From: Glycera tridactyla | Taxonomy: Eukaryota | Reading direction: 5' to 3' | Assembly: GCA_965644265.1 (NCBI GenBank) | Contig: OZ286475.1 | Location: 70,122,001 to 70,186,000, forward strand | DNA length: 64,000 nucleotides | Part shown: in pieces, positions 13,029 through 63,553 of the stretch | Numbering within the stretch: the first letter of the stretch is position 1 | How the letters are laid out: each line of letters begins with the position of its first letter | Made by a program: the position numbers and the translations under genes | Notes under the pieces: model-generated | What the model was told of the DNA's origin: nothing | Seen by the model: only the letters and a program-made list of their open reading frames with translations | The model's database searches: none

Positions 13029-14132
13029 TCACAGTTTATATAATTTGAAAGCCTTAGATTCAATCCAACTATCGTAGCTACTAGACCATCCCTTCCATTT
13101 GACATAATATTCTATCTTCCCCCGAATTTTCCGTTGTTTAATAACCTTCTCTATATCATATGTAGTCTCTTCATTTATTTGAACTCTCTGCAACTCAGAT
13201 TGATAGAAAACACCACCAATTGGATTATTATCCCAATCTTTTAATTCATACTGCGGGATATACTGATTAACTTTTAGTTTTATAATTCTAAATAACTCTT
13301 GAGTCCACTGCTCATCATATGCTTTATCATATGGTTGTCTTATAATAGATATCCTCACTATATCCCCGGCTTTATACTTATGTTTGATATTCTTTTTAGG
13401 GAACGGCTTTCGTCTACTGAATGGATTATATAATTTCTCCCAAATTTCAAAATTATCTTCACTCGTTACTAGGGCTGGTGCTTTCCCAGTGCTAGTATGC
13501 CTAGTATTGTTATAACTTTCAACTATTTTATCCAAAACTTTAACCCAACTAGTTGTTTTATATTTTCTCATATACGCAATGAGTTTTGACTTAATGGTTT
13601 TTATCGCTCTTTCCGCAATATTTGCTTTTTTATCTGTCTGTGCAAAGAATTGTTGTATCCCATTGTCCTTGAGATAGTTTGAAACAAATTTATTTTTGAA
13701 CTCGGATCCTAAATCTGACCTGATTCTCTCCGGTCTCACACCGGATACTTCGAAAATACTGTTCAATGCTTCAACAACCTCCCGCCCTTTGGTCGAAGTC
13801 ATTGGGCGTGCATGAATATATTTACTGAATACATCTATAGAAATTAGAATGTACGAATAACCATTATTTTGCTTGCTGTATTTTCGCATGAATGCAGTGT
13901 CGATATCATATTGATAATTGTTATAGGGTACAATTACTCTTGGTCTTGGGAATTTTGTTCTCACCTCACGTTGCAGTGTATAATATTCCTGTCCCTCAAG
14001 ATACTTGTCAACCTTTGCCTTTCCATACTTTTCTTCTGTTGAAGGCTTATTTTCAATAATTTTCCTTGATGAGGAAAAACTAGCAGGTGTACGAGGTTGA
14101 GTAGAACTCAGTTCTAAGAAATCTTTACCCAT
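13029..14132 (-). CDS. INT: Retroviral-like DDE integrase with C-terminal chromodomain
   Basis: QYDID, IDVFSKY, IRSDLGSEF, NIAERAIKT; YDIEKVIKQR...YYVKWKGW...DSWI chromodomain; intact. Confidence 0.95.
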   Translation of the reverse strand: MGKDFLELSSTQPRTPASFSSSRKIIENKPSTEEKYGKAKVDKYLEGQEYYTLQREVRTKFPRPRVIVPYNNYQYDIDTAFMRKYSKQNNGYSYILISIDVFSKYIHARPMTSTKGREVVEALNSIFEVSGVRPERIRSDLGSEFKNKFVSNYLKDNGIQQFFAQTDKKANIAERAIKTIKSKLIAYMRKYKTTSWVKVLDKIVESYNNTRHTSTGKAPALVTSEDNFEIWEKLYNPFSRRKPFPKKNIKHKYKAGDIVRISIIRQPYDKAYDEQWTQELFRIIKLKVNQYIPQYELKDWDNNPIGGVFYQSELQRVQINEETTYDIEKVIKQRKIRGKIEYYVKWKGWSSSYDSWIESKAFKLYKL

Positions 14133-15117: not shown

Positions 15118-15753
15118 CTACTTTGGCGCATAGACTATTGTATCCTGTCCTGGAAAAATGCTTGTACGCAATTGGTGGAGGCGATTTCGGCGGGGTGATC
15201 GATCAATACACAGATATCCAAAATCATTGGATATTGCATCCATGTATGATTCCATCATTTCCTTCCCCATCTTCATCTGCTTCCCTATTATTTCTATTTG
15301 CAATAGATCAGACGACTCAAAGATGATGAGGTAGTGGGCATTCATATTTATTGTCCTACTAGATGGACCTTTACAGAAGAAATTCTGATTCATATATATA
15401 ACTGTTATGTTTTGATGATGTGACCCTCTTGTGAATAATACTTCAACATTTCTGCTTCTGCAGATGGAATCCATAAGATCGTCCAGAAAAACGAGACAGT
15501 GGGTACTAGTATTTTTGAAAAGATCGATATCAGATTGAGAAGGCACTCCTTCATGAAAATCAATATTGAGTCCACTCTTTTCCATCTCGTGAGAGATTGG
15601 TTGATAAATACCATAACAGTATAGGATTTTCTCAGGAGGTTCGTCAGGAAACATAGTCTTCACGTTATCCAGCAGTCTTTTGATCCATGTTGTTTTCCCA
15701 GATTGTGTTGATCCTGTTAGCACAATTGTTGTTGGAGAGATGAAAGGATACAT
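15118..15753 (-). CDS. ATP: FtsK/A32-like genome packaging ATPase
   Basis: Walker A GSTQSGKT, Walker B LVFLDDL, FTRGSHH, YMNQN; intact. Confidence 0.95.
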   Translation of the reverse strand: MYPFISPTTIVLTGSTQSGKTTWIKRLLDNVKTMFPDEPPEKILYCYGIYQPISHEMEKSGLNIDFHEGVPSQSDIDLFKNTSTHCLVFLDDLMDSICRSRNVEVLFTRGSHHQNITVIYMNQNFFCKGPSSRTINMNAHYLIIFESSDLLQIEIIGKQMKMGKEMMESYMDAISNDFGYLCIDRSPRRNRLHQLRTSIFPGQDTIVYAPK

Positions 15754-16112: not shown

Positions 16113-16560
16113 TCAATTAACACACCGATTTAATACATTTGCCCATGCACCTCCTATTTTATCACTCCCAGGGAATGAATTTGAATCCTGCAGCGGGATA
16201 ACATGCTCATCCAACCCGCATGAGAGAATCTTGTCAAAACTATGTGCATAAACAATTTGCCTAGCTACCGCTGCTTTCAAAGCTATTTTTATCACAGGTT
16301 GTTGTAAATATAGCTCATGACATAGTTCATATAACACTTCATCAAGCTGGCAAAGCCATTTATATGAAGGCGAGATCTGCTCATCCATGCGTCTCAGCAA
16401 TCGTTCATGCGTAGTATCCATTATTTCCTCCAGTATTGTTTGAGATTCATTGTGAAAGTGTGCTTTATTACGCAATAATGCTTGGAACATGCATTGATAT
16501 TTGAAAGATTTGAATGTGAAATCCTGAATGAAAAAGGGTGAGAGGCAACTTTCATTAGTT
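16113..16560 (-). other. NADAR (YbiA-like) domain at the pPolB C-terminus, probably catalytically degenerate
   Basis: NFY...LSPFF...KY...Q...KA...EEI...W...EVL...Q.P.IK.AL...IV...D...CGLD...D.NSFPG.DKIG matches the spacing of the NADAR consensus. Confidence 0.7.
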
Positions 16561-19500
16561 ATGATATAAAAGTTATTAGCTGGTATTGGAGTTAGAAGTA
16601 GATCCAGAGGTTCTGTATTTATTCCATCATCTAATATCTTCCTCTTGCAGTAGAAGTATGTGAACACTTTTTTCTTTTGCTGATAAGTGAGAACTTTACT
16701 TCCCTGTGATCTAATACCATGGTTTATATTTTCAACACCTGTTTTAGAGTCAAGAACATGTTTGAATATTCTATAAGGGTTTGATAAGTTCCATTTATTC
16801 ACACCCTTGGAGCTGAATTTACATTTTGTTTCATTCTTCAGTAGATAGCATTCAGATGAAAGAGAAATCATTTCATCACCAACAGCTTCTTGCTTGAATA
16901 ACCCAGGTGTTCTACTGTCAAGCTTGGTATGCTTTTCACAACAAGTTCGCGGGAGCCAAATATCTGCTCCATCTGGTAGATAAGGATCATTTGAACAGTG
17001 GAGATTCAATGTAGAAATGAATTTTTCCTTCATTTCAGGTTTCACTGCCTCTTCCAAACTATTGTGGGCAAGAGCCATATAAGCACTATCAGTATCCATC
17101 TCTGTATATTGAAAGCAATTTCTCGGGATATATTTATCGATGAAATCATAGTGAAAAGCAAGCATGTGTAATTTTGCATATTGTAAAACAAAATATCCGA
17201 GCTGGATCGGTAATTGTTCTTTCACCACATCAAGACCCATTTGTAATTCATAAAGCTCGCTGCCTAATTCAGTCATGTGACGGAATGTGGGTTTGTTCAT
17301 ATGTAATAAAAGGTCACTCTCACTTTGAGTATATTTCACACTTTGAAACCGCGATCTCTGTAATAATAAAGATCCGTAGGAACTATTACCTATGAGTTTC
17401 ATAGATTCACTTATGATTGAAAGCTTAGGATCGTCATCACCTCTTCGTCTTGCAGCAGTTACATCCTCTTCAAATTGTTTGAAACATTTTGCTTTGGAAA
17501 ACTCTACTACTTGATATATTTTGCTAACTTCAAGCCCGTGATCTATGTACCATTTGAGTAGAGGGGTTGCGAGTAAAATTTTATTTGCTTTCATTCCTCC
17601 TACAAGTGATTTCCAGGGTTTCTTGCTTAAATCATGTTTTTCAGCATGATCTTGCATGTGCTCTCCGATACAGTCAAAGGGTATATCAACTGTGCAAAAC
17701 AGTTGGGACATTTCGTGGAAATAAGCTTGTGGTTCTAGTTCATGCTTGAAATGTGAGCCCCATTCTTTCGGTACTGCAATGTCAACTTCTACCATCCCAA
17801 ATATCTCTGAAAGTACGGCTTGCAGTATCTGTTGCTCAGATATGTAAGTCTTATTAGCTCTATAGAATGCAGGGAGCAAGTGATCTGAGTTTGTATCCAT
17901 ATCATCGAAGAGCAGGCGTTCGTTTTGAAAGTCGCATTCCCACTTTTCTATGACTGTGTATCCTGATTTTTCCAAGAATAATTTCCTCTGCTGTGTCCTC
18001 GCATATCTCACTTGATGTTGTTTTCTTTCTTTCTCTGTTTTAAGATGTACATTCATACTACAAATAGCTGGATCATGCCCATGCCAAAAACACCCATTAA
18101 ACTCATACACTGTTTGAGAAGCAGCATCAAATCCATCAACTAAATAGGGACCTATTCTGAATTCTTTCCCACTATTTAATTTATGTATGATGCTCCGTCC
18201 TTCATTCATAATTATATTCTCCAACCACATATACATTTTTATATATTTGATCGGGAGACGTGGTTCGAATCTCTCATGCCTGCTTTGTCTCACATAGATC
18301 CCTACCGGCATATCTCTTGCTAATGAATGAAGGTATAGTGCATTCGCATCATATCCCACAATCGACTTGCACAACTTTTCACCTCTTATCAATGTTTCAT
18401 CTTTTTTGTGATGTCTGGTAAATATTATACTAGGTCCACCAACTATGTTCCTCTTTATGGTGTGGAATAAGTCTTCATCATCTTTCCCTATCAAACTAAA
18501 CGCTATTCGTTTCTCTCTCGCACTATTGAAAAGTAAATGTCTCGCAATTCCTGGTACTGATATAGCATTTTTGAAAACATCTATGCCCATATCTTCATAG
18601 AAGTTACGCATTTTTATCACACCTGAAATGAATGGACCAACATCAAGGTTGTTATAATACCTCAAGAAATCATGCATAGTTTCCATTCCATACTCATCCC
18701 AGGTGTGTAGGAGTCTATTATAGTTCTTCTCTCCTGAAGGTGGAGGATCCCCCTTCCCATCCCAACTTAAAAATTCAGACTCTAGAGTATTCTGCTGCTT
18801 CAAACTCGAGTAGAATGAATCATATGATGGAAGTGCAGTTTCTTCTAATTTGGCTGCTGAGGTTAACCATTCATATGGGAAGAATGATTTCTGTTCAGCT
18901 ATGTCAAATGCTTTAAGAAATCTTGCATAAGAACATCCTGGGGCTAGGAAATGAGAAACATCTAGGAAAAGGAATTTAGGAACTGCAATAGATGCATATG
19001 AATTACCCTTTTTTATCACATGTATATTTGACTTGCTATCAGTAACTAGATGCTCAATCAATTTACTCTTGACTAAATTTGAATCATATCTTGCAGAGTT
19101 GAAACCAAGAACCGGAACTTGAGAGCAATATTTCTCGAAATCATGCTTCAACTGCATAAGTCTATTTAGGATCAAATTACACTTGTTCTTCTTATTTTTC
19201 TGCTTATCCACAGTGTTATATTTAGCTTTCTTCTCAGCTAAAGTAGCGCTCTTTCTCTGCTGATGTAACAGTCTCTGATGAAATGAAATATCCTCATCTT
19301 CTTCATCATCTAATTCAATGTCGTTTATAAAATAGGTATTCTCCTCATTTGCATAGTCATCAGCTCCATAAACAGACTCTTCGGTGCTAGCATTTGATGC
19401 AGCTGAGCATTCATTTAGTAGAAAATGTTTGTGGCGAGCTTTTATCACATTCACACATACTTCCTGCGTTTGTAGATTTGGTTAGGAGATAATGACTGAA

Positions 19501-21530
19501 TCTTCAGTTGGATTTGTATGTTGGAGTTCCTCACGGTTTTGAGTTGATTGTAGGGTTTTACCGAGAGTAGTAGTATCCCTGATTTGATCAGAATCTGAGC
19601 TACTGAATAATTCAGTATTAGCACATTCTTCATCCTTTTGTGATTCTGCAGCAATGTTCTCCCATTTTATAATCAATTGATCCAGATCTTGTATAGCAGT
19701 GTTCCATTTTTTAAAACTCAATTCATTTATCTTAAAGGCAATCAAGTGTAGATAGTGATAAAAATCTCTTATCAATGTATTAGGATTTGAATCAATGATA
19801 CATTGAGGCGCAGAGAAACCGTCGATATTACTCCCCACACTAACTGAAATCGGGATATGCTCACTATTCCATACAAGGTTTTCTGTTACTCTATCATTGC
19901 TCGGTTTCAGTATTGCTTCAAAATCATAAACAATGAACCAATCAAAAGTTCGATCCTCACTTGCTACATTGATCCCATACTCCTGTAGCCTATCAAATAT
20001 TGTCTGTGGAATGCAGTGGAACCCTCCCGGAAATTTTGTTTTGGTTGCAACACTACAATGTTTCAAATGTTTTTTCACTCGCTTCTTTCTAACAAAATGT
20101 CTATAACACATGGGGCAGGCAAATTTCTTTGCATAGTCATTGAATGAAGTTATGTAACTAGCATGACGTTCATACATGTTAACATTCATAGAGTCAGTAT
20201 ACATATGATTCGATTCAAAGATGGTAGAGACTGAACCATCGGATAGCAAAGAAAAAATTTTCACACCAATCTGAAAACATTTTTCGAAATCATTCACATG
20301 AGCTATTTGAATACCAGTGAACTTCTTTGAATTATCTGGTGGTTCATCATTACAATAGCTTCTCCATTGTTCGTATTAACTTAAAACCCCACTATTTTAA
20401 GGACTGATAGCATTCGGTTTTTTACTTCGCAATCTATGTAGAGCAAGACATCTAAATAAACATAGTGAGTCTTGATAAGGAACTTGTCTTGAATCACATT
20501 CAAGCGAGATTACATACTTGTTTGATTTTATATAATCGGGGAGACTACCAACACCAAGCGCAAAATCAGTTTTATAAACAATGATGTGTATATTGGTTAT
20601 TAGATGTGGTTTCCATTTTGAATTTGGACGTTGTGATCTGATGAATTCAAATATATCTAATTCTTGTAATCTATTCACAACTCTCATCAAGTCCTCACTT
20701 TTTGAAATCATGATAGGATAGGGAAACAGATTAGCATTGACATATGGGATGAAATACCTATAACTCTGTCTCCCATTCATCTGATCCTCCTCCTCCCCAT
20801 GTGCCGTAGTCCTGCTTTCTTCATCTTCAGTAATTTTTTTAAGTATTATCCCAAATGCAAAGTTAACCTTGAATGTTGAACTCTGCTGTGCATAGACATA
20901 GGATAACCTTCGTGTTAGCTCATCGTATCCATCTTCCAGATTGTTTGTAGGGAAATTATACACACTTGAAAATTTCTTCTCTCGTTGATGTCGTAAGATA
21001 TGTTTTTTATTCTTGTTATACACTTCCTGTAGCTCATTATCTACTATCCCATCTTCACTAATCCAGGGTGGTGATGTCCAAGGTTCTTCTTGTAGCGTTG
21101 ACCTCTTTTCACCTCCATGCATTGATTCTCTATGAGTATACAACATTGTAAGGTTCGGATGCATGCTCCCACAATCAAAGCATTTATACTTTGCTGCCGC
21201 ATCGGAAGAATGGAATGCTAGATGTTGTGTGAGTTCATCTGAGTTTATGAATGCTTCATTGCAAAGATGACATGTTGAATGGTTGCAATGGGATATATGA
21301 TTTGAGAGTCGCGCTGTAGAGGAAAAGATCTTGGAACACTTGGAACAATGTACTTTCATATCCTCCATCTCATCACAACAATGCATGCGTCTCATATGTC
21401 TCTTCAAGTTATACATTCGCGTAAAATCCGCATTGCAGATATCACAGCAGAAGCGATGAAATTTTATGATAGGGTTCCTAGAGATTGTGGGTTGGGGTGC
21501 GTCTGTTAGTCCTGAATTACTCAATAGCAT
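16113..21530 (-). pseudogene. POLB: Giant ZnF-vOTU/TP-protein-primed DNA polymerase B with VSR-like nuclease insert and C-terminal NADAR-like domain; three in-frame stops
   Basis: ORFs 20397-21530, 19482-20297 and 16113-19454 share one frame (1806 codons; TAA at 20399, 20378, 19484). ExoI YDFE, ExoII FNSARYD, ExoIII YNNLDV; Pol A YDANALY, B KLIGNSSYG, C MDTDS; insert VDG...EFNGCFWHG. Confidence 0.93.
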
Positions 21531-27042: not shown

Positions 27043-27450
27043 ATGGATAGTGGAACATACTTCGAGTGCCACTCATGTGATCGAATAGTGAATAGCAATA
27101 CGCGAGTTCGACTATGGGCATGCACTCACTCCATCTGCAATTCTTGTACTTATCAGATTGTTGATAGTGCATTCAGCTGTGTAGTGGTTCAGTTTCCAGA
27201 ATGTCCATTTTGTAGTTCTCCCATCTGCCTTCCAATATCCAATGCTTTGGATATGAAAATTATAAGTTTCATATCTGATTTACACATTGGAATGAGGAAA
27301 GAAGCGGAAGGTGTGATAACATGTATGTACAGAACTTGCTATAATAGCCAGTGTTCACAAGTATATCTTGTTCAGTCTACATGCACTTGTGACGAAACTG
27401 TTGTGTTCACCTACAAATCCCCAACCCATGACTTCTTCAGAGTGCAGTGA
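27043..27450 (+). CDS. C3HC4 RING-finger protein (putative E3 ligase)
   Basis: C-HS-C...C-T-H-SI-C-NS-C...C-PF-C spacing, plus a second Cys cluster. Confidence 0.7.
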   Translation: MDSGTYFECHSCDRIVNSNTRVRLWACTHSICNSCTYQIVDSAFSCVVVQFPECPFCSSPICLPISNALDMKIISFISDLHIGMRKEAEGVITCMYRTCYNSQCSQVYLVQSTCTCDETVVFTYKSPTHDFFRVQ

Positions 27451-27930: not shown

Positions 27931-28773
27931 TCAACAAACGCCGGCAAGTGTTGGTTGTAATGAACGCTCTGTAGTGGTAGCAGTTTCGGTGAGATCTCCA
28001 AATGGCAAGCATTCCGGATATGTGCGCTTCTGCTCAACTGTTCGGTGCAGGCTTCCGCAAGTACGTACCAAATCTATCGAAATAAAAACATTGAGTTCGT
28101 CTACAATCGTGCATAGATTCTCAAACTCGCGTATCCTGAAAGCAATACCAGGTACACCGGGAGCGATTTTCTTCTCGGACTTGGGAAAGAACCATTTTCG
28201 AGAGGCGATAGCGAAAACATTTTGCGTAACCTGAACCATATTTCTATCCCCGAGATGATTGAACAGTCGCACCTCTTCGTAGTTCTGTAGTTTTCGCACA
28301 GCTTCCCTAACACTGGGGAGGATTGTGATGAACTTCTTCCACTGCCCGAGAGTTAGCTGGATCCTCTTTCTTGACACTTCCTCCAAACGTGCGTTTTCCA
28401 GTGAGAAACGAACAAATGTGCCATCTGAGGAGATGTGCAAGATACGCTGATACCCTACGTCTGCTTCGAAGAATGAAACTCTTCTTCTCTTCAATGGTTG
28501 CTCCACTGGATGTTCGGATATCACCTCTGCAATCGGTTGAGTGGTTGGTGGTTGCTTTGCTATTGGTTGATCCATAATCGATAACTCCATCTTTGGTTGC
28601 TCGACTATCTCCAACTCTGGAAGACTGGCTTGTGAAGATTCATCTTCAATCGTTGTGACATCGATTGTTGAGATATCAATTTCACTGGCGACCTCTGGTG
28701 CTCGAATAGATGGATCAGAGAGCAAGTATGAATCATCTGATGAGGAAGGGTATCGGTTGTAGCTAGATGCCAT
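27931..28773 (-). CDS. PC4-like ssDNA-binding protein with acidic disordered N-terminus
   Basis: IQLTLGQWKKF and HLG...V.V......RKWF.......PG..GIAFRIREF..L repeats typical of PC4-like domains; degenerate C-terminal C..H....ECLP. Confidence 0.65.
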   Translation of the reverse strand: MASSYNRYPSSSDDSYLLSDPSIRAPEVASEIDISTIDVTTIEDESSQASLPELEIVEQPKMELSIMDQPIAKQPPTTQPIAEVISEHPVEQPLKRRRVSFFEADVGYQRILHISSDGTFVRFSLENARLEEVSRKRIQLTLGQWKKFITILPSVREAVRKLQNYEEVRLFNHLGDRNMVQVTQNVFAIASRKWFFPKSEKKIAPGVPGIAFRIREFENLCTIVDELNVFISIDLVRTCGSLHRTVEQKRTYPECLPFGDLTETATTTERSLQPTLAGVC

Positions 28774-29375: not shown

Positions 29376-29837
29376 ATGTTCTCTTCAACACTCGAGTAGA
29401 AAAATGATGGGAAGATGTGAATACCCTTCTTTATATAATTTCCATTGGACGCATGTGTGAACACCTGGCTGATTGCGGATGTTTAACAACTCATATGAAG
29501 TGTTAATGCATGTGATAATTTATCAATCTATGAAAGAATGGAAGCTGCTTTTGAAGATTGTTATTACCCTTAGATTTATGAATGAAGCATCACTGCTTTT
29601 GAATTAATTTGTATGGAGTTATGCCATCTACTATTCCCAAGTATGTTGAGGTAATAGACTTCAATAGTTTTCAGAATAATAACATTACAACTTTTACCCA
29701 TTTGAAGTGTAACAACTCTTTCAGAGTAAATCAATAAATATGTAAGAAGAGCATAAATTCAGAGGAAAGTGAGGTAAGCACTATAATTATCTATGATTCA
29801 TTGTAATATTCTATTATGATGATATAAGCACTATAAC

Positions 29838-29932
29838 CTATTGTGTTCTCGGGCGAGGTTTACAACCTTCACACCTTTTCTTTGTCTGCCGGAGCAAATC
29901 ATGTAGGATGCTCCTTACCCTCTTCCACTACT
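29838..29932 (-). repeat. Right terminal inverted repeat (95 bp)
   Basis: Exact reverse complement of 7656-7750. Confidence 0.97.
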
Positions 29933-29938
29933 ACAAGT
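29933..29938. repeat. Right target site duplication ACAAGT
   Basis: Matches 7650-7655. Confidence 0.97.
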
Positions 29939-55769: not shown

Positions 55770-58700
55770 GTAGTAGAGGCGAGGAAAAGCTCGATAAGAG
55801 GATGGATACCGTCAAAAAAAAAAAAAGCGAAATCGGTCGAAAATGCTGCCAAAGACCTGAGAAAAGAATTTACATCCAAAATTCAGAAATCAGTGGACCC
55901 TATCAAGAAGGACCTACAAACCATAGGACAATATGTAACAAGGGAGGAGTCCAAAGTAGGAGAACTTGCTGTCAAAATGGATGTCCCATTTGAACCGGAC
56001 CGTAGTGTGATTGCATTTGGGCTCAAACAAATAGAGGGCGAATCCCTTGAGGTATGCGTTGACCGACAATTCAAGGACATATCGGAAGTCGAAGTGCATG
56101 TCAAACGCACAGAAAGAAAAGTGCCGAAAGATCAATCTAAAGTGGGACTTTTCCTAATTGAACTAAAAGACAATGATGAAAGAAAGGTAGTCCTCCAAGC
56201 AAAGAAATACTGTGCGGATCATGGAGAGTACAAAAATGTGTCTATTAAACAGTGTGAGCCCTACGCAATTCGTATGGCCAAGGCAATACCCGCGACATGA
56301 TAGAAGCACTGAACTTAGAGGATGTTTTCTATGTTGCTGGTCACGGCAGGCTACGTAGGAAAGCCACACGCGATCAAGAAGCGGGATTGCATATACATGA
56401 TGCCAGGCCAGACCGAGACGCCGAGCGGCCCCGAACAGGAACTGCCAATGGAGACATGAGCGATAATGAAGGACCGGACCGCATCGACGACCAAAACAAC
56501 GATGAGCACGGGCGTGGAGAGAGCGTAAGGAGTAGGGGCAGAGGCAGTGGCCCACAAAGCGGCCGAGGCGGCAGCCGAGGTGACGGCCAAGACGGTACGT
56601 CTGCTGGACAGAGGAAATCAAGTCGGGCCCGCGATGGTCAAAAGCAGTAGCATGCTGAAGAGCGCAATACGTATGAACAGCTCACAATGGGATCATGGAA
56701 TGTGAGTGGATGGTCTGGCGTGAAACAGAACTTCAAAAAGGCTGCCATACTTTCTCTCAGTACTAATGTGATCTTTCTCTCGGAAACATGGGCAAAAAAG
56801 GGTGGAATAATTGAAATGGATGGGTTCACAGTATTACAAAACAACAGAGATACTGTTAGCAAAAGAAGTGCAAGAGGTTCTGGCGGGATGGCAATGCTGG
56901 TCGCAAATGAACTGACACGAACACACTCAGTAGAAAGAATCGATGATGATATAGAGGGTGTTATTGCTATTAGATGCCGTCATTTTCTGTCGAATTTCAC
57001 CTTTGTATTGATTGGGATCTATTTGCCTCCAGAAAACAGTATATATGCCAAAGACATTGATGATACCCTTGCCATGGTAATTAGCCTCGCCTATGTATGT
57101 GCGGATGAAGACTTGATGTTAATATGTGGTGATATGAATGCTAGACTGGGACGAAAGAATGATTACATTGATGTGATTGATGAGGTTGAACAGAGAGCAA
57201 TGATTGATGATTGTCATAACGAACATGGACTCGCACTCATTAATTTCATGGTGCAAACGAAAACTTGTGTAGTAAATGGTAGGATTTCACAGGAATGTAA
57301 CGACTTCACCTCGATAAGCCATAAAGGCGCCGCAGTTGTAGACTACTTCATTGTACCCCACGATGTACTTCATACCCATATCAATAGTTTCAAAGTAGTC
57401 ACCAGTAGCCGTATCACGGAGACGGTTGGCGCGCATGATGCTGGGCGATTGTTGGGCCACAGCGCGCTATTACTGAGTATAAAGGTAAGAATGCCACCTA
57501 GCGGCCCCATCGAGAACTCTAGTTGTACTCGTCACCAACCAGAGGCAAGACCAAAAAAATCTTGAAATGAAACGTTACAGCCACAACCGTCCACTGAAAC
57601 TTCCTATATTAAACGAAGAACATGCCAACCCCCGTTGAAAATGCATAGAGGCCCACTACCAGTTGAGATTCCATCGAGCAAGACCATTTGTGAAGTCATA
57701 CCCAAAGAGATAAATGACATGCTTGACTATAAGGTGAACCAGGAAAAATTGGACAGTTTGTATGAGCTGTTGATCGAAAGTTACTGCATGGAACTGAAAG
57801 ATCACTGGAAAATAATCAAGAATACCCCGGCCAGTGGTAAAAGGTTGAAGCATAAACCCTCCCCCTATTGGAATCCTTCTCTTGATGAATTGTGGAAAGA
57901 AATGCATGCAAAAGAAAAAATGTACCTGAAAGAGAAGAAGGAGAGGAGAGTTACCCATGGAAGGAGGAGAGACTTTCTGGAAGCCCAAGGGGCATTCGAT
58001 AAAGCCTTAAAGAAAGCGAAAAGGAAACATAACCGTTCGCAGATTTTTAACCTGGAGAGAACCAATAATGAGAACCCAACTGAGTTCTGGAGAACCATTT
58101 GCTCCATGGGCCCCAGAAAGTCTGTCAAACCCCCATGGGAGGTGTATTCAAGTGATGGGTCTATCATAACCAAAAAAGCTGATGTATTAGAAAAATGGAA
58201 GTCAGACTTCCAAGGTTTGTTGACTCCTCCGGTATGCCGAGATCCTGAACAAATTGCCTTTGAAAGAAAAACTGTAAAAAACAATGCCGGAGAAGAAAAT
58301 CATATAGACGCTGAAAAGCTGGCAAATGATTCAATTAATCAGGATTTCACCATAGAAGAGGTTCAAAAAAATCGTGAATAAAGCAAAATCAGGCAAAGCA
58401 GCCGGATTGATAGCATACCGGCGGAAGCCCTTATAGAATGGGACCTCAATCACCATATTGACTCATCTTTTTAACGTATGTTTGCGAAGTAGAGTTGTAC
58501 CTACAATGTGGTCATATGGTATCATAAACCCCATTCCCAAAAGCAGTACTGCTAATACACGTATCCCACTGAATAATAGAGGAATCAGCCTGCTACCAGT
58601 GGTCAGCAAGCTGTACACTGCTTCCATTTCTGCACGTCTGTCAGAGGCCTTGGAGAAAAAGCATGATTTGTCCAATGAGCAGAATGGTTTCAGACCAAAG

Positions 58701-60772
58701 AGATCATGTCTAGACCACCTTTATACATTGACCAGCATCTGTAGAGTGAGACAGGAATTGAGACAAGAGACATTTTTGACGTTTATAGATTTCTCCAAGG
58801 CCTTTGATTACGTGTCACACGACCTCCTATTTTCAAAATTATTGAGGAAGAATCTTACCGGGGATGTCTACCACGCCATCAGAGCAATATATCAAAATCC
58901 CAAGAGCAGTGTACAGCTGGATGGCCACTTGTCGGGCTGGTTCCCGATTACATCGGGTGTAAGACAGGGAGATTCCCTAAGCCCACTGCTGTTTGCCACC
59001 TTCATTGATGACCTGGTGCCGATTATGAAAGACTGTGAAGCTGGGATTTTCATAGGTGGCCATCAGATTCCAATGTTACTATATGCCGATGATATAGTGC
59101 TTATGTCAGACTCAGCAAAAAATGCCCAGAAGCAGTTGGACATTATGACTAATTGGTGCAATCGGTGGAAGATGGCCATCAATGCAAAAAAGTCCCAAGT
59201 GGTACATATCAGAAACCATCAACGTCCTCTATGTACAATACCGTTATTCTGCTGTGAACAAAAACTTGAGTATGTCTCAAGCTATGAATACCTTGGCATC
59301 CTTGTGAATGAACATTTGTCATTCAAACCCACCGCCGATTCACTAGCTGCCGCAGCTTCAAGGTCATTCGGAGGATCATATCGATTTTCCAAAAAACTAC
59401 ACAATATGGGTGTCAATACATTCAATACTCTATACGACACCTATGTAGTTTCTATCTTAAACTACGCAGCCGGTGTGTGGGGCCACAAGGATTACAACTA
59501 TGCTAAGGTATTACAAAATCGCATTGCAAGGTTTTACTTAGGTGTGCATAAGTTTACCTCAGTGGCTAGTTGTATGATTGAGATGGACTGGTTGGACATT
59601 ATATTTTGAAGGTGGATTGAGATGGTAAGATTCTACAACAGGATTGTCAAGATGGAATCACACCGTCTACCTGTTTTAATCTTCAAATGGGAAAAATCCC
59701 TAAACCTAAACGGTTAGGTGGAAAAACTGAAACACATACTAAGCTATGCCAACATGGATGTAAACATTGATGATAACTGTATTATTGATTTGGATGTTTT
59801 ATCAGCCCGCCTTAAGACACTGAATCGTGACCGATTGTGGGTGGAAGTATCCTCAAAACCAAAGCTACGTACGTTCATAAAGATTCATGAAAGAACCCAG
59901 TTGAGAACGCTAGTGAATGCTAACCTATCAAGAACAGTCAGGAGCAACCTTGCTAAACTAAAATCAGGGGTTCTACCACTTGCGGTTAAAACCGGTCGGT
60001 TTAAAGCAATCCCTCTAGAAAATAGAATGTGTCTTTGTTGTGGTAGTGGAGAGATTGAAGATGAGGCTCACTTTCTTTTGTCATGCACTGCTTTGAAAGA
60101 GGAAAGAAAGGCTATGATACGAAACATTAGAAAGTTGGACTCCTCTTTGAGCCTTGAGAGTTTGAACGATGTGAAGTTAGCCCTTTCTGCTCCAGTCATC
60201 GAATGTTTCGGGGAAGGAATCACAGCCATGCTGGAACTCAGAAAAAAATGTGTTTTCAAGTGACTGCCCACACTACGATTCTAAGGGAGGGTATGTAATA
60301 CTAGAATAGATGGCATACTGAGTTCTCCCTCTTTTCCCCTATCAAATAACCACTGTAAATGTTCTCGATGTGGATAATGATTGTTTGGACCCACTGCTAA
60401 ATGTTATGATGTATTGTGCCCTATATTATATGAAATGTTATGATGTATTATGCTCTATATTAGATGAAATATGTAAGCATTGTACATAGTGTAAATATAA
60501 ATTTCCAATACTGGATCGTACATAACCCTTGAGTATTTAACCAAATGCGTTCAATCCCAATTTGTTATTAAACTGTTGTATTTATATGTCATTAGTTCTA
60601 CACGGTGTGAGGTAAATCACTAAATATCATTTTGTGACTAATAGCCCCTATATAGGGGCGGGAATATATGTATATGATTGCGATTGCGGAGCAATGATAT
60701 GTATTGTATGAGATGTAATTGTATACGTTCTGGTCACAAAAATAAAAATACTTTTCACTTTTCACTTTTCAC
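55770..60772 (+). mobile_element. Near full-length APE-RT LINE (family beta) with ORF1 and ORF2, disrupted
   Basis: ORF1 coiled-coil/RRM-like pieces 55802-56650; APE 56687-57565 (SWNVSG, SETW, GDMNAR, VVDY); RT 58458-59609 (QGDSLSP, YADD); C-terminal CCHC 59718-60263; AATAAA plus (CTTTTCA)3 tail. Confidence 0.93.
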
Positions 60773-61010
60773 TACTACTACTACTATTACTACTATTACT
60801 ACTATCATTATTATTATCATCCTCATGATTATCAGTATTACTAGTACTTCGATTATTACTACTATTACCAACACCACTCCACCATTGATTCTACGAACAC
60901 TACTACTGATACTGCTGCTCTAACTACTTCTACAGCGACGATGGTGACGACGATGATGACTTCGCTTGCACTACGAACCCTGCTTCAACTATGACCAACA
61001 CTACTACTAC

Positions 61011-63553
61011 GTAAGTAAGCTCTTTACCGCAATGCTAAGTAAAAGAATCTCTGGATACTACGAAAAATACAATCTGCTTGCAAACGAGCAGAACGGGTTT
61101 AGAGAAAAAAGGTCAACGCTCGATCATGTTTACACACTCCTAGAGATCTGCAGGGTAAGGAAAGGTATGAAATCAGATACATTTCTAGCATTTATTGACT
61201 ATGCCAAAGCCTTTGACTATGTAAGGTATGAGTACTTGTTTTATAAATTACAAAGGCTTGGCATAAATGGCAACGTTTATAACGTCATCAAAGCTTTATA
61301 CGAGAAACCCCAGAGCTGTGTACAATTGAATGGGCATCTCACGAGATGGTTCGATATCGTATCAGGGGTCAGACAAGGGGACTCATTAAGCCCCACCCTA
61401 TTTGCATCATTTATCAATGATTTAGCCGTTGAATTGAATCAATCTGAAACAGGTATTCAAGTCGGGGGAGAGAGAATCACGCTGTTGATGTACGCGGATG
61501 ATATTGTAATGTTAGCCCCAAACCCTGGCTGTACTCAAAAACAACTCAATATAATGACCTCTTGGTGCCGAAGATGGGGTATGAAAGTGAATGCTAAGAA
61601 AAGTCAAATCTTACATATCAGAAACTATCAAAAACCACGAAATAAGACCAAATTGTTTTGCTGTGAAGAAGAATTAATATACGTAGACAACTACAAATAC
61701 CTTGGATACCATGTCAATGAACATTTATCACATGAAAAAACCGTTTCTATACTCACTTCGGCAGCAGCGAGGTCATTTGGAGGTGTAATAAATATATTCA
61801 GATACCTCAAGAATATGGGGATCAATTCCTTTGAAACTCTGATAAACTCTAATATTTACACAATTGCAAATTATGCAGCTGGGGCCTGGGGCTTCCAAGA
61901 ATTTGAACAACCACAGGTATTGCAAAACCGCATTGCCAGATACTACCTTGGTACACATAGATTTACATCGGTGGAAGCAGTATTGTGTGAACTTGATTGG
62001 CTTGATATGAAGAACCTCAGATGGCTTGACATGATAAGATACATGAACAGGCTAATCAAAATGGATCAGCATCGACTCCCAGTGAAAGTCTGGAGATGGG
62101 AAAAATCATTGAATGTGGAATGCTGGGCCTCAGAAGTAGCACATATACTGTCATATCTAGGTATAGACACGGAACCATCCATTATAGACATACCATCATG
62201 CTGTGATATTATGAAAGCGAAACTGAGAAACAGAAGAGCACTAGTAAGGGATTCGAAACCAAAACTCCGCACGTACAACATTATAAGAGACCAAAACAAC
62301 ATTAGAGTAATGGTAGAAGAGAACATGAACAGACAAACCAGAAGCATACTTACTAAGTTCCTATGTGGAGTTCTACCTCTACATATCGAAACCGGGAGAT
62401 ACAAGGGACTAAAAGAAGATCAGAGGGTATGTCAAATATGCAATTCGGGTGAGATAGAAAATGAGATCCACTTTACACTATATTGTCAAGCTCTGGAAGA
62501 CATACGCAAACCCTTTCTCGATAATATCAGGGTCTCGGACTTTGGGACATTAGATGACCACAACAAATTGAAAACACTATTACATCCGGACAATATCAAA
62601 GAGTTTGCTATATGGCTAGAACATATGTATATGAACAGGAAAAAGATACTATATAAATAACATATCTGAGTATAATCCAGATGTCGGCATCAGAATAGGA
62701 TAATGCTTGCCATAGTTTACAAATTGAATGAATACAGAGCCCTTGCATTAGATCATTTATACCCACCTAGACTCACACAACAACATCCGGAAGGCAACAG
62801 CGCATTGTGAATGCCAGCCCCACAGCAAAGCGCTGAAGCCGTGTTCCAGCTTTGATACGAATCGATACTAGATTGTACATACTTATACTACGAAGAAAGC
62901 CTAACGTAGGAATAGTGTAATGCAAACGATTTGACACATACCATCATACGAGGTATCTGAGCATACAACTATGAAAGGGTATTGAGAACCCCGTGTGAAT
63001 AATATTGAATATATGTGTTTGCTAATGTGAATGTTGAATATATGTAGGCTAACAATATATTTATTCTAAATGTTAACCATTTATTACTGTTATCATCATT
63101 ATTAATGGAAACATTGTAAAGATTGACATGACGCTCTACAACCCAAAGGGATTTAATTTTTGAAATTTATAGTAAATAATATATGTTATCACTTATATAT
63201 TTATGTTATACCCGAATGAATCGGTATTGCAAGGATCGTATACAGAATATACACTAGGGAGATAAGACATTACCAAGGAATATCAATATTAATAACTCAA
63301 AGGATCCGTGATTAGTGGTATTAATGTGTTGTATTACAAGGTACTACTTACAGTCTAATAACCCCCCAGTGGGGTGGGAAATTATGATCAAGATATAGAT
63401 CAAGGTATGTTATTGGTTAATGAACAAAGTATTGAATATAAAAAAATGCATGCTATGAAAAGACCGGTATATTCACCTGATCGATGTTTATGTATACAAT
63501 GTAAAATTTCTAGACTGTATAATAAATTACGTCTTTACGTCTTTACGTCTTTA
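61011..63553 (+). mobile_element. 5'-truncated LINE (family gamma) with an open RT frame
   Basis: ORF to 62660 with EQNGFR, QGDSLSP, YADD, LHIETGRY, CQIC...ENEIHF; AATAAA plus (TTACGTCT)3 tail. Confidence 0.93.

Follow-up and report, generated by a model that had tools for sequence, protein, structure and literature searches.

The DNA polymerase of a Polinton in Glycera tridactyla is fused at its C terminus to a domain predicted, from modeling, to have the NADAR fold. In the 64,000-nucleotide stretch of DNA analyzed here (the window), the minus-strand polymerase frame crosses DGINTEPL, where such polymerases usually end, without a stop and adds 163 residues, about 155 of which make up the NADAR-fold part. 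The fusion is confirmed as real, and it recurs in divergent Polinton families of the same genome and in database proteins. Hardly any fused domain keeps both catalytic acids of the NADAR pocket, and the domain is nevertheless maintained by purifying selection between families. At a probability of roughly 0.55, our preferred reading is that a NADAR was captured once as an active remover of ADP-ribose and has become a rigid, non-catalytic extension of the polymerase in the window element.

The polymerase gene and the fold of its tail

Hallmarks of Polinton/Maverick elements that the window element has are a pPolB, a retrovirus-like integrase, an ATPase, a protease, terminal inverted repeats, and a 6-bp target duplication (Table 1). 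The two inverted repeats are identical at 193 of 215 aligned bases. Relatives of the polymerase match PF03175. In this copy the polymerase gene is broken into three pieces, the last of which carries the tail, and in an unbroken relative (L031) one frame of 1,897 codons holds the sequences of the upstream pieces.

Table 1. Positions of the Polinton, its genes, the fused domain, and other features in the window
Feature	Position	Strand	Remarks
Polinton	7656-29932		22.3 kb; bounded by inverted repeats and a 6-bp target duplication
Left terminal inverted repeat	7656-7869		6-bp target duplication just before it, 7650-7655
Maturation protease, adenovirus type	9233-9712	minus	Peptidase_C5, E 0.0018
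Gene in two pieces (ORFs) that we take, from its sequence and position, to be the likely major capsid protein gene	9709-10998	minus	Pfam scan gave zero capsid matches
Retrovirus-like integrase with C-terminal chromodomain	13029-14132	minus	rve, E 2.5e-12; Chromo, E 2.4e-7
Packaging ATPase (Pox_A32-like)	15118-15753	minus	Pfam, E 1.3e-5
Stop codon of the NADAR-bearing ORF	16113-16115	minus	
NADAR/YbiA-fold domain	16113-16583	minus	Residues ~859-1014; Pfam, structure match, residue mapping by sequence alignment
Pocket equivalents (8BAU residue = window residue)	E43=F891, K50=K898, G78=D925, R79=E926, W89=W934, R93=L938, E125=Y970, D130=D975, W133=L978, G134=S979	minus	
Polymerase ORF, last piece, with NADAR tail	16113-19157	minus	1,014 aa; polymerase motifs
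C-terminal motif of the polymerase, then a short junction of fixed length before NADAR	16584-16652	minus	
DGINTEPL, usual polymerase end	16605-16628	minus	
Putative VSR-like nuclease insert in polymerase	17913-18104	minus	Weak DUF559 match, E 0.1; assigned by comparison with the mollusc-type pPolB2 group (10.1101/2023.08.22.554363)
Upstream polymerase gene pieces	ORFs 19482-20204, 20397-21530	minus	C2H2 zinc fingers in 20397-21530
Accessory ORF inside Polinton	27043-27450	plus	Weak RING-finger match, E 0.018
Accessory ORF inside Polinton	27931-28773	minus	Weak PC4-like match, E 0.07
Right terminal inverted repeat	29699-29932		Identical 6-bp target duplication just after it, 29933-29938
Two broken non-LTR retrotransposons	55977-62660	plus	AP endonuclease and reverse transcriptase matches; unrelated to the fusion

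The isolated tail matched the Pfam NADAR profile PF08719 at 35.5 bits (E = 1.5e-8), above the curated cutoff of 35.1. All 12 members of the family alignment also matched it (best E = 9e-21), and other families reached up to 74.8 bits. A profile of the tail family matched the Phytophthora NADAR 8BAU with an E value of 6.5e-7. The AlphaFold2 model of the tail, built from the 12-sequence alignment (pLDDT 90.2), aligned with 8BAU over 156 residues (Z = 18.0, rmsd 2.3 A) and with E. coli YbiA 2B3W at Z = 14.7. Its match to the Geobacter NADAR, 8BAT, was weaker than that to 8BAU (Z = 7.7, rmsd 3.4, 127 residues aligned), and unrelated structures scored 3.9 or less. Foldseek concurred with the NADAR match (TM 0.73), and an ESM Atlas feature search with the tail ranked NADAR clusters first (score 0.92). 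Single-sequence searches of PDB sequences gave zero matches, and word-indexed protein searches with the window domain and with a fused protein whose pocket is intact (P0014) gave 92 and 217 candidates, respectively, of which zero were scored.

An earlier note on this DNA had read the polymerase frame past DGINTEPL into a NADAR-like segment. The 163 stop-free residues and the above-cutoff Pfam match agree with that reading, and the fold comparison upholds the NADAR assignment. The segment had been placed at 16113-16560; it exists, but the domain begins slightly upstream of that boundary, at about 16583. Family members whose polymerase gene is unbroken likewise finish with this domain rather than stopping before it. 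One contig from a separate public run (X3 record 18) covers the junction with 31 substitutions and zero gaps. Two runs assumed to be RNA yielded only low-depth, scattered short contigs. An assembly artifact or a lost stop codon is ruled out by the long-frame relatives, the junction-spanning contig, and the dN/dS values given below.

Distribution, junction, and origin of the fusion

A search of the 2.04-Gb host genome with the window domain gave 91 matches, 39 of them within stop-free frames of at least 1,700 residues, and a Pfam NADAR search gave 128 matches that included additional families. From 52 stretches of the genome we chose a single long-frame copy per family, 12 in total. Each of these divergent Polinton families has a polymerase that continues into a NADAR domain, whose identity to the window domain ranges from 17 to 98%. 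In eight stretches from among the most distant polymerase matches, the frame stops 4 to 5 residues past the thumb profile and there is no NADAR; the domain therefore occupies the exact position at which other families stop, and the NADAR-less families of the host genome end within the junction equivalent to 16584-16652. The Polintons of the genome fall into 12 or more families with NADAR and several without it. Many of these families have copies that are nearly identical and polymerase frames that are long and open, a sign of recent activity. In family D, one copy (L036:6235-7074) has a frame-shifted NADAR end, giving it an unrelated tail of 124 residues.

Among the best 150 matches of a profile search against 1.84 billion representatives, 31 were polymerase-NADAR fusions, and a second search yielded more. 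A polymerase C terminus was found in 166 of the 285 proteins of the pooled set and a NADAR-like tail in 106 of those 166 (13 from the host genome and 93 database proteins, one of them a near-duplicate), a set collected with NADAR-bearing queries whose counts do not give prevalence. Many of the fused proteins already bear PF08719 through automatic Pfam annotation, and the unfused named relatives of the polymerase come from bivalves. An IMG/VR scan found 7 loci (20 to 38% identity, on contigs of 53 to 152 kb), and a metagenome scan found 12, mostly matching the polymerase part only. We also considered whether Polintons carry stand-alone NADAR genes and rejected the idea, as seven of nine short-frame matches (L043 and L044 included, L045 apart, and not every one traced) adjoin polymerase pieces or fall at places where a polymerase is broken.

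Two database proteins vary the theme. P0176 is a fused polymerase with a 251-aa tail that, by eye, apparently comprises two tandem NADAR-like units. P0227 (1,576 aa, JGI), a related Polinton-type polymerase, has DUF4326 (PF14216, E = 1.9e-19) at residues 1489-1569, where NADAR sits in its relatives; it is a single sequence, and this tail may stem from a lost stop codon. DUF4326 has been tied to ADP-ribose processing (PMC9503650).

In 103 of the 106 fused proteins, intact forms included, 35 to 38 residues separate the YxKR motif of the polymerase from the beginning of the NADAR core, and a low-complexity tether is absent from the junction. Such a fixed length would favor a single fusion event and a domain set in fixed register over one that hangs on a flexible tether. 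Forcing all fused rows into one group was not rejected (p-AU 0.645, computed on 24 of the 53 fused rows and 24 of the 40 free ones), a result that does not by itself prove one clade. In the domain trees, most degenerate forms cluster weakly, and the intact pair P0013 and P0014 lies nearest the free NADARs, within a starred set that includes CCHC zinc-knuckle proteins. In the polymerase tree (159 C-terminal regions, with 7 short fragments omitted), P0014 falls among NADAR-less polymerases with unstarred support. Presence or absence of NADAR changes nine times on this tree, a count to be read against deep nodes that lack resolution and rows scored as having none that are possibly truncated proteins. 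Later re-capture of intact NADARs or repeated losses are both possible. From these data we infer a single capture, for which the NADARs of animal retroelement type form a plausible and likely donor pool; NADAR is carried, for example, by oyster Tx1 LINE ORF1 proteins (PMC12477816). The existence of two relatives that retain every catalytic residue suggests, at the level of sequence, that the fused NADAR was originally active.

Catalytic pocket and selection

According to the available text of PMC11543638, E43 and E125 of 8BAU contact the distal ribose, K50, R79, W89, R93, D130, and W133 contact the pyrophosphate, and the residues corresponding to E43, K50, and E125 are important for activity. 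Substitution of the equivalent acids abolishes or impairs characterized NADARs (PMC11543638; PMC12945103). When pocket residues were mapped by sequence alignment rather than by atom-level superposition, with a presumed two-residue offset in numbering, both catalytic acids of the window copy were found to be aromatic, and three of the six pyrophosphate contacts were kept (K50, W89, and D130), those at R79, R93, and W133 being replaced. By this mapping the window domain lacks the first catalytic glutamate (E43/E88) and the last-strand catalytic residue of an active hydrolase and has its phosphate-binding lysine (K50/K95); this residue, Lys898, is invariant in alignment A1. All 12 host-genome families lack both acids. 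Nor does the window domain qualify as a DarT1-associated (BC4488) NADAR antitoxin, a type marked by a DarT-like transferase gene next to it, Asp at the last strand, and a basic extension at the N terminus: zero transferases were found among the 17 element proteins scanned, the last-strand residue is Tyr, and the match to 8BAT is the weaker one.

Both acids are retained in 2 of the 106 fused domains. Among free NADAR domains, a control that the same search supplied and that includes about 11 likely fragments of fusions, the count is 90 of 155. The E43 equivalent is kept in 24 fused domains, and the E125 equivalent is an acid (Glu) in 2, His in 3, and aromatic or aliphatic in 91. The 67 long forms keep W89 in 62 cases, D130 in 48, and R/K93 in 38, rates about as in free NADARs. 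The two exceptions, P0013 and P0014, keep E43, K50, W89, R/K93, E125, D130, W133, and G134. Each reaches ~100 bits against the Pfam NADAR profile, and each is a singleton from a short contig (1.3 and 1.8 kb). The catalytic replacements that the earlier note had pointed out are thus true of the window copy, at F891 and Y970, and every fused relative but this pair has lost at least one of the two acids.

Other NADAR-like proteins turned up in the same searches. P0003, P0004, P0015, P0030, and P0073 are non-polymerase proteins with 3 to 7 tandem NADAR domains, several of them without catalytic residues. In the host genome, L092:5669-6727 encodes a single-frame protein of 352 aa whose NADAR-like domain (E = 8e-7) is degenerate but distinct from the fused ones; it is not joined to a polymerase and has no long ORF beside it, and L081 (G000:C34:51450000-51459999) is a canonical NADAR gene with introns (exon frames 2906-3283, 4322-4663, and 5268-5855), which by eye keeps the equivalents of E43, K50, G78, R79, W89, E125, D130, and W133.

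Selection was estimated by the Nei-Gojobori method with bootstrap for the two between-family pairs whose synonymous sites were unsaturated. The NADAR domain gave dN/dS values of 0.18 (0.11-0.28) and 0.23 (0.14-0.38), and the polymerase gave 0.10 and 0.08 over 346 codons in the same pairs, so that the domain evolves about twice as fast as the polymerase. These values show purifying selection on the domain at the family level. The window copy itself differs from its sister copy by 10 and 4 non-synonymous versus 1 and 1 synonymous changes, a mostly non-synonymous record that is expected of a dead insertion.

Short tails of 123 to 142 residues, lacking the helices that bear G78, R79, and W89, make up 39 of the 106, and W89 or R79 is retained in none of them. 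With the junction removed, 37 of the 39 match the long-form profile at E <0.003 and the other two at 0.008 to 0.01, and the model of a host-genome short form (pLDDT 80.8) retains the NADAR fold (Z = 13.3, rmsd 2.3 A, 122 residues aligned). Pairs of short forms in the three families measured in the host genome gave pN/pS of 0.33 to 0.49, with synonymous sites near saturation. Short forms occur at three places in the polymerase tree, one of them nested among host-genome long forms with starred support; four changes between short and long were counted, one of which is due to the mislabeled P0175. At least three lineages have therefore deleted the lid of the pocket yet retained the domain. Because these lid-less forms are still constrained, whatever role is selected in them needs no complete ADP-ribose pocket.

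Function and comparison with known systems

The survival of both acids in only 2 of 106 domains, set against purifying selection on the domain, is the basis for reading it as captured and then disarmed. Polinton polymerases carry out strand-displacement synthesis, which exposes single-stranded template. In the history we envisage, an active NADAR would have been fused directly behind the polymerase thumb in a clade of animal Polintons, and the ancestral domain could have cleared ADP-ribosylated bases from the single-stranded template during replication, by analogy with AdfN of phage. Almost all descendants would then have given up catalysis but kept the folded core, and the present role may be to brace the thumb or to offer a surface for protein contacts. 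We infer such a structural role by excluding the alternatives. Against it stands the frequency with which long forms keep W89, D130, and R/K93, about that of free enzymes, which could reflect continued nucleotide binding; short forms may differ in role from long ones. Polymerases that work without NADAR are common among the relatives, and five of them were sampled from other host-genome families; the polymerase fold thus does not depend on whatever structural role NADAR has.

Retained pocket residues bear on the possibility that the domain is a reader. Such a domain would not cut its ligand, be it ADP-ribosylated DNA, poly(ADP-ribose), or a nucleotide, but bind it and so place the polymerase at modified bases or help it past them. 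The window copy keeps the K50, W89, and D130 equivalents, at least four of the six pyrophosphate contacts persist in 40 of the 67 long forms, a binder is marked by just such a combination, one acid lost almost everywhere and the phosphate binders kept in part, and fusion to a replicative polymerase would suit a lesion-related role. The window family, however, keeps three of the six contacts, R79 is replaced by an acidic residue, both positions that would bind the ribose are aromatic, and the lid is gone from more than a third of the relatives. A host-genome search for a DNA-modifying transferase, with genes matched exon by exon, gave zero matches to PF22596 (Scabin-like) and PF02917, as did the controls. 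The ADP-ribose reader put forward in the earlier note thus agrees with the retained phosphate contacts but sits poorly with the aromatic ribose positions and the lid deletions, and we regard it as possible but improbable. As a plain nucleic-acid-binding module, which the same note had also proposed, the domain alone is doubtful, given its net charge of -4 (median 0 in long fused forms).

Were the domain instead a decoy or a docking module for a host protein, such as an ADP-ribosyltransferase or a restriction factor, and acting in conflict instead of in the mechanics of the polymerase, its faster evolution than the polymerase, its neutral to acidic surface, and its presence in some Polinton families and absence from others in the same host would fit. 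Pairwise dN/dS values well below 1 speak against this, and packing against the thumb explains the fixed junction length and the conserved core equally well; we think it unlikely. An enzyme of altered chemistry or substrate, for example one that cleans up small ADP-ribose derivatives, could draw on the tolerance of NADAR subfamilies for E (YbiA type), D (DarT1 type), or H (phage type) at the last strand (PMC11543638), on the His found there in three fused forms, and on the E43 equivalents that survive. Both window positions are non-polar aromatics, and the substitutions vary from family to family without convergence on a new catalytic set, which makes continued catalysis quite improbable. The window gene, interrupted upstream and diverged from its sister copy with no trace of selection, might suggest a remnant without function or a lost stop codon read through by chance; the fusion nonetheless occurs in 12 families down to about 20% domain identity, in 93 database proteins, and in 39 frames that are both long and open. 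A functionless remnant is refuted at the family level by the between-family dN/dS near 0.2, leaving this reading barely credible.

More boldly, the polymerases of animal Polintons may be armed with an eraser of ADP-ribosylated bases; at the replication fork, intact fusions would clean the template, and degenerate long forms would still sense the mark. We offer this tentatively and think it probably wrong; if true, it would reveal an unrecognized invertebrate defense by DNA ADP-ribosylation against DNA viruses and transposons. The earlier note had likewise proposed a host defense of this kind, which the host-genome search leaves unsupported, with zero pierisin-type matches, though the controls were equally empty. 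CARP-1 homologues occur in bivalves, cnidarians, and sponges, and endogenous G/C ADP-ribosylation in eukaryotes may exist undiscovered (PMC12945103). P0013 and P0014 are direct candidates for testing whether DNA bases are ADP-ribosylated against DNA replicons in animals.

The fusion is conserved, apparently undescribed, and built of known parts. As the earlier note had supposed, the literature searched holds no description of it; supplements, subscription journals, and Repbase reports lay outside that scope and could list it. The available text of PMC8502044, PMC11131425, 10.1101/2023.08.22.554363, and 10.64898/2026.10.13.758929 does not mention NADAR, nor does that of PMC9503650 mention Polintons. 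The fusion adds a widespread domain to the Polinton polymerase and offers a natural series at one fixed position, which starts with intact NADAR, passes through forms stripped of catalytic residues, and ends with lid-less miniatures. As NADAR pseudo-enzymes bound to a polymerase, the stripped forms would make up a first family.

The window element resembles Polintons whose pPolB has the TP-vOTU-Exo-Palm layout (PMC11161782) in its integrase, ATPase, protease, repeats, and 6-bp duplication, and its putative VSR-like polymerase insert would recall the VSR-bearing pPolB2 group (10.1101/2023.08.22.554363). The add-ons of the pPolB types set out in the available text of these two sources are N-terminal, inserted, or helicase, with no C-terminal NADAR among them. 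NADARs are likewise embedded in replication proteins of mobile elements in the replicase polyproteins of invertebrate RNA viruses (PMC9503650) and in retrotransposons, among them Ectocarpus Gypsy Pol and oyster Tx1 ORF1 (PMC12477816). Those carriers, however, are RNA-based replicons, Polintons are not listed in the available text of either source, and DNA-virus NADARs there typically stand alone. The predicted fold has its secondary-structure elements in the same order as 8BAU and YbiA 2B3W, and the window domain has the K50, W89, and D130 equivalents in common with the YbiA subfamily (PMC11543638). It differs from that subfamily in its 13 to 16% identity, in the replaced equivalents of E43, E125, G78, R79, R93, W133, and G134, and in being fused to a DNA polymerase. 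A precedent is AdfN (gp30.3) of T4, likewise a NADAR on a DNA virus-like element, which removes ADP-ribose from phage DNA and restores replication (PMC11825919), and so sets an example for an element clearing its own DNA. AdfN is a stand-alone, active enzyme that counters the toxin DarT1, whereas the Polinton domain is fused to its polymerase and mostly lacks the catalytic acids.
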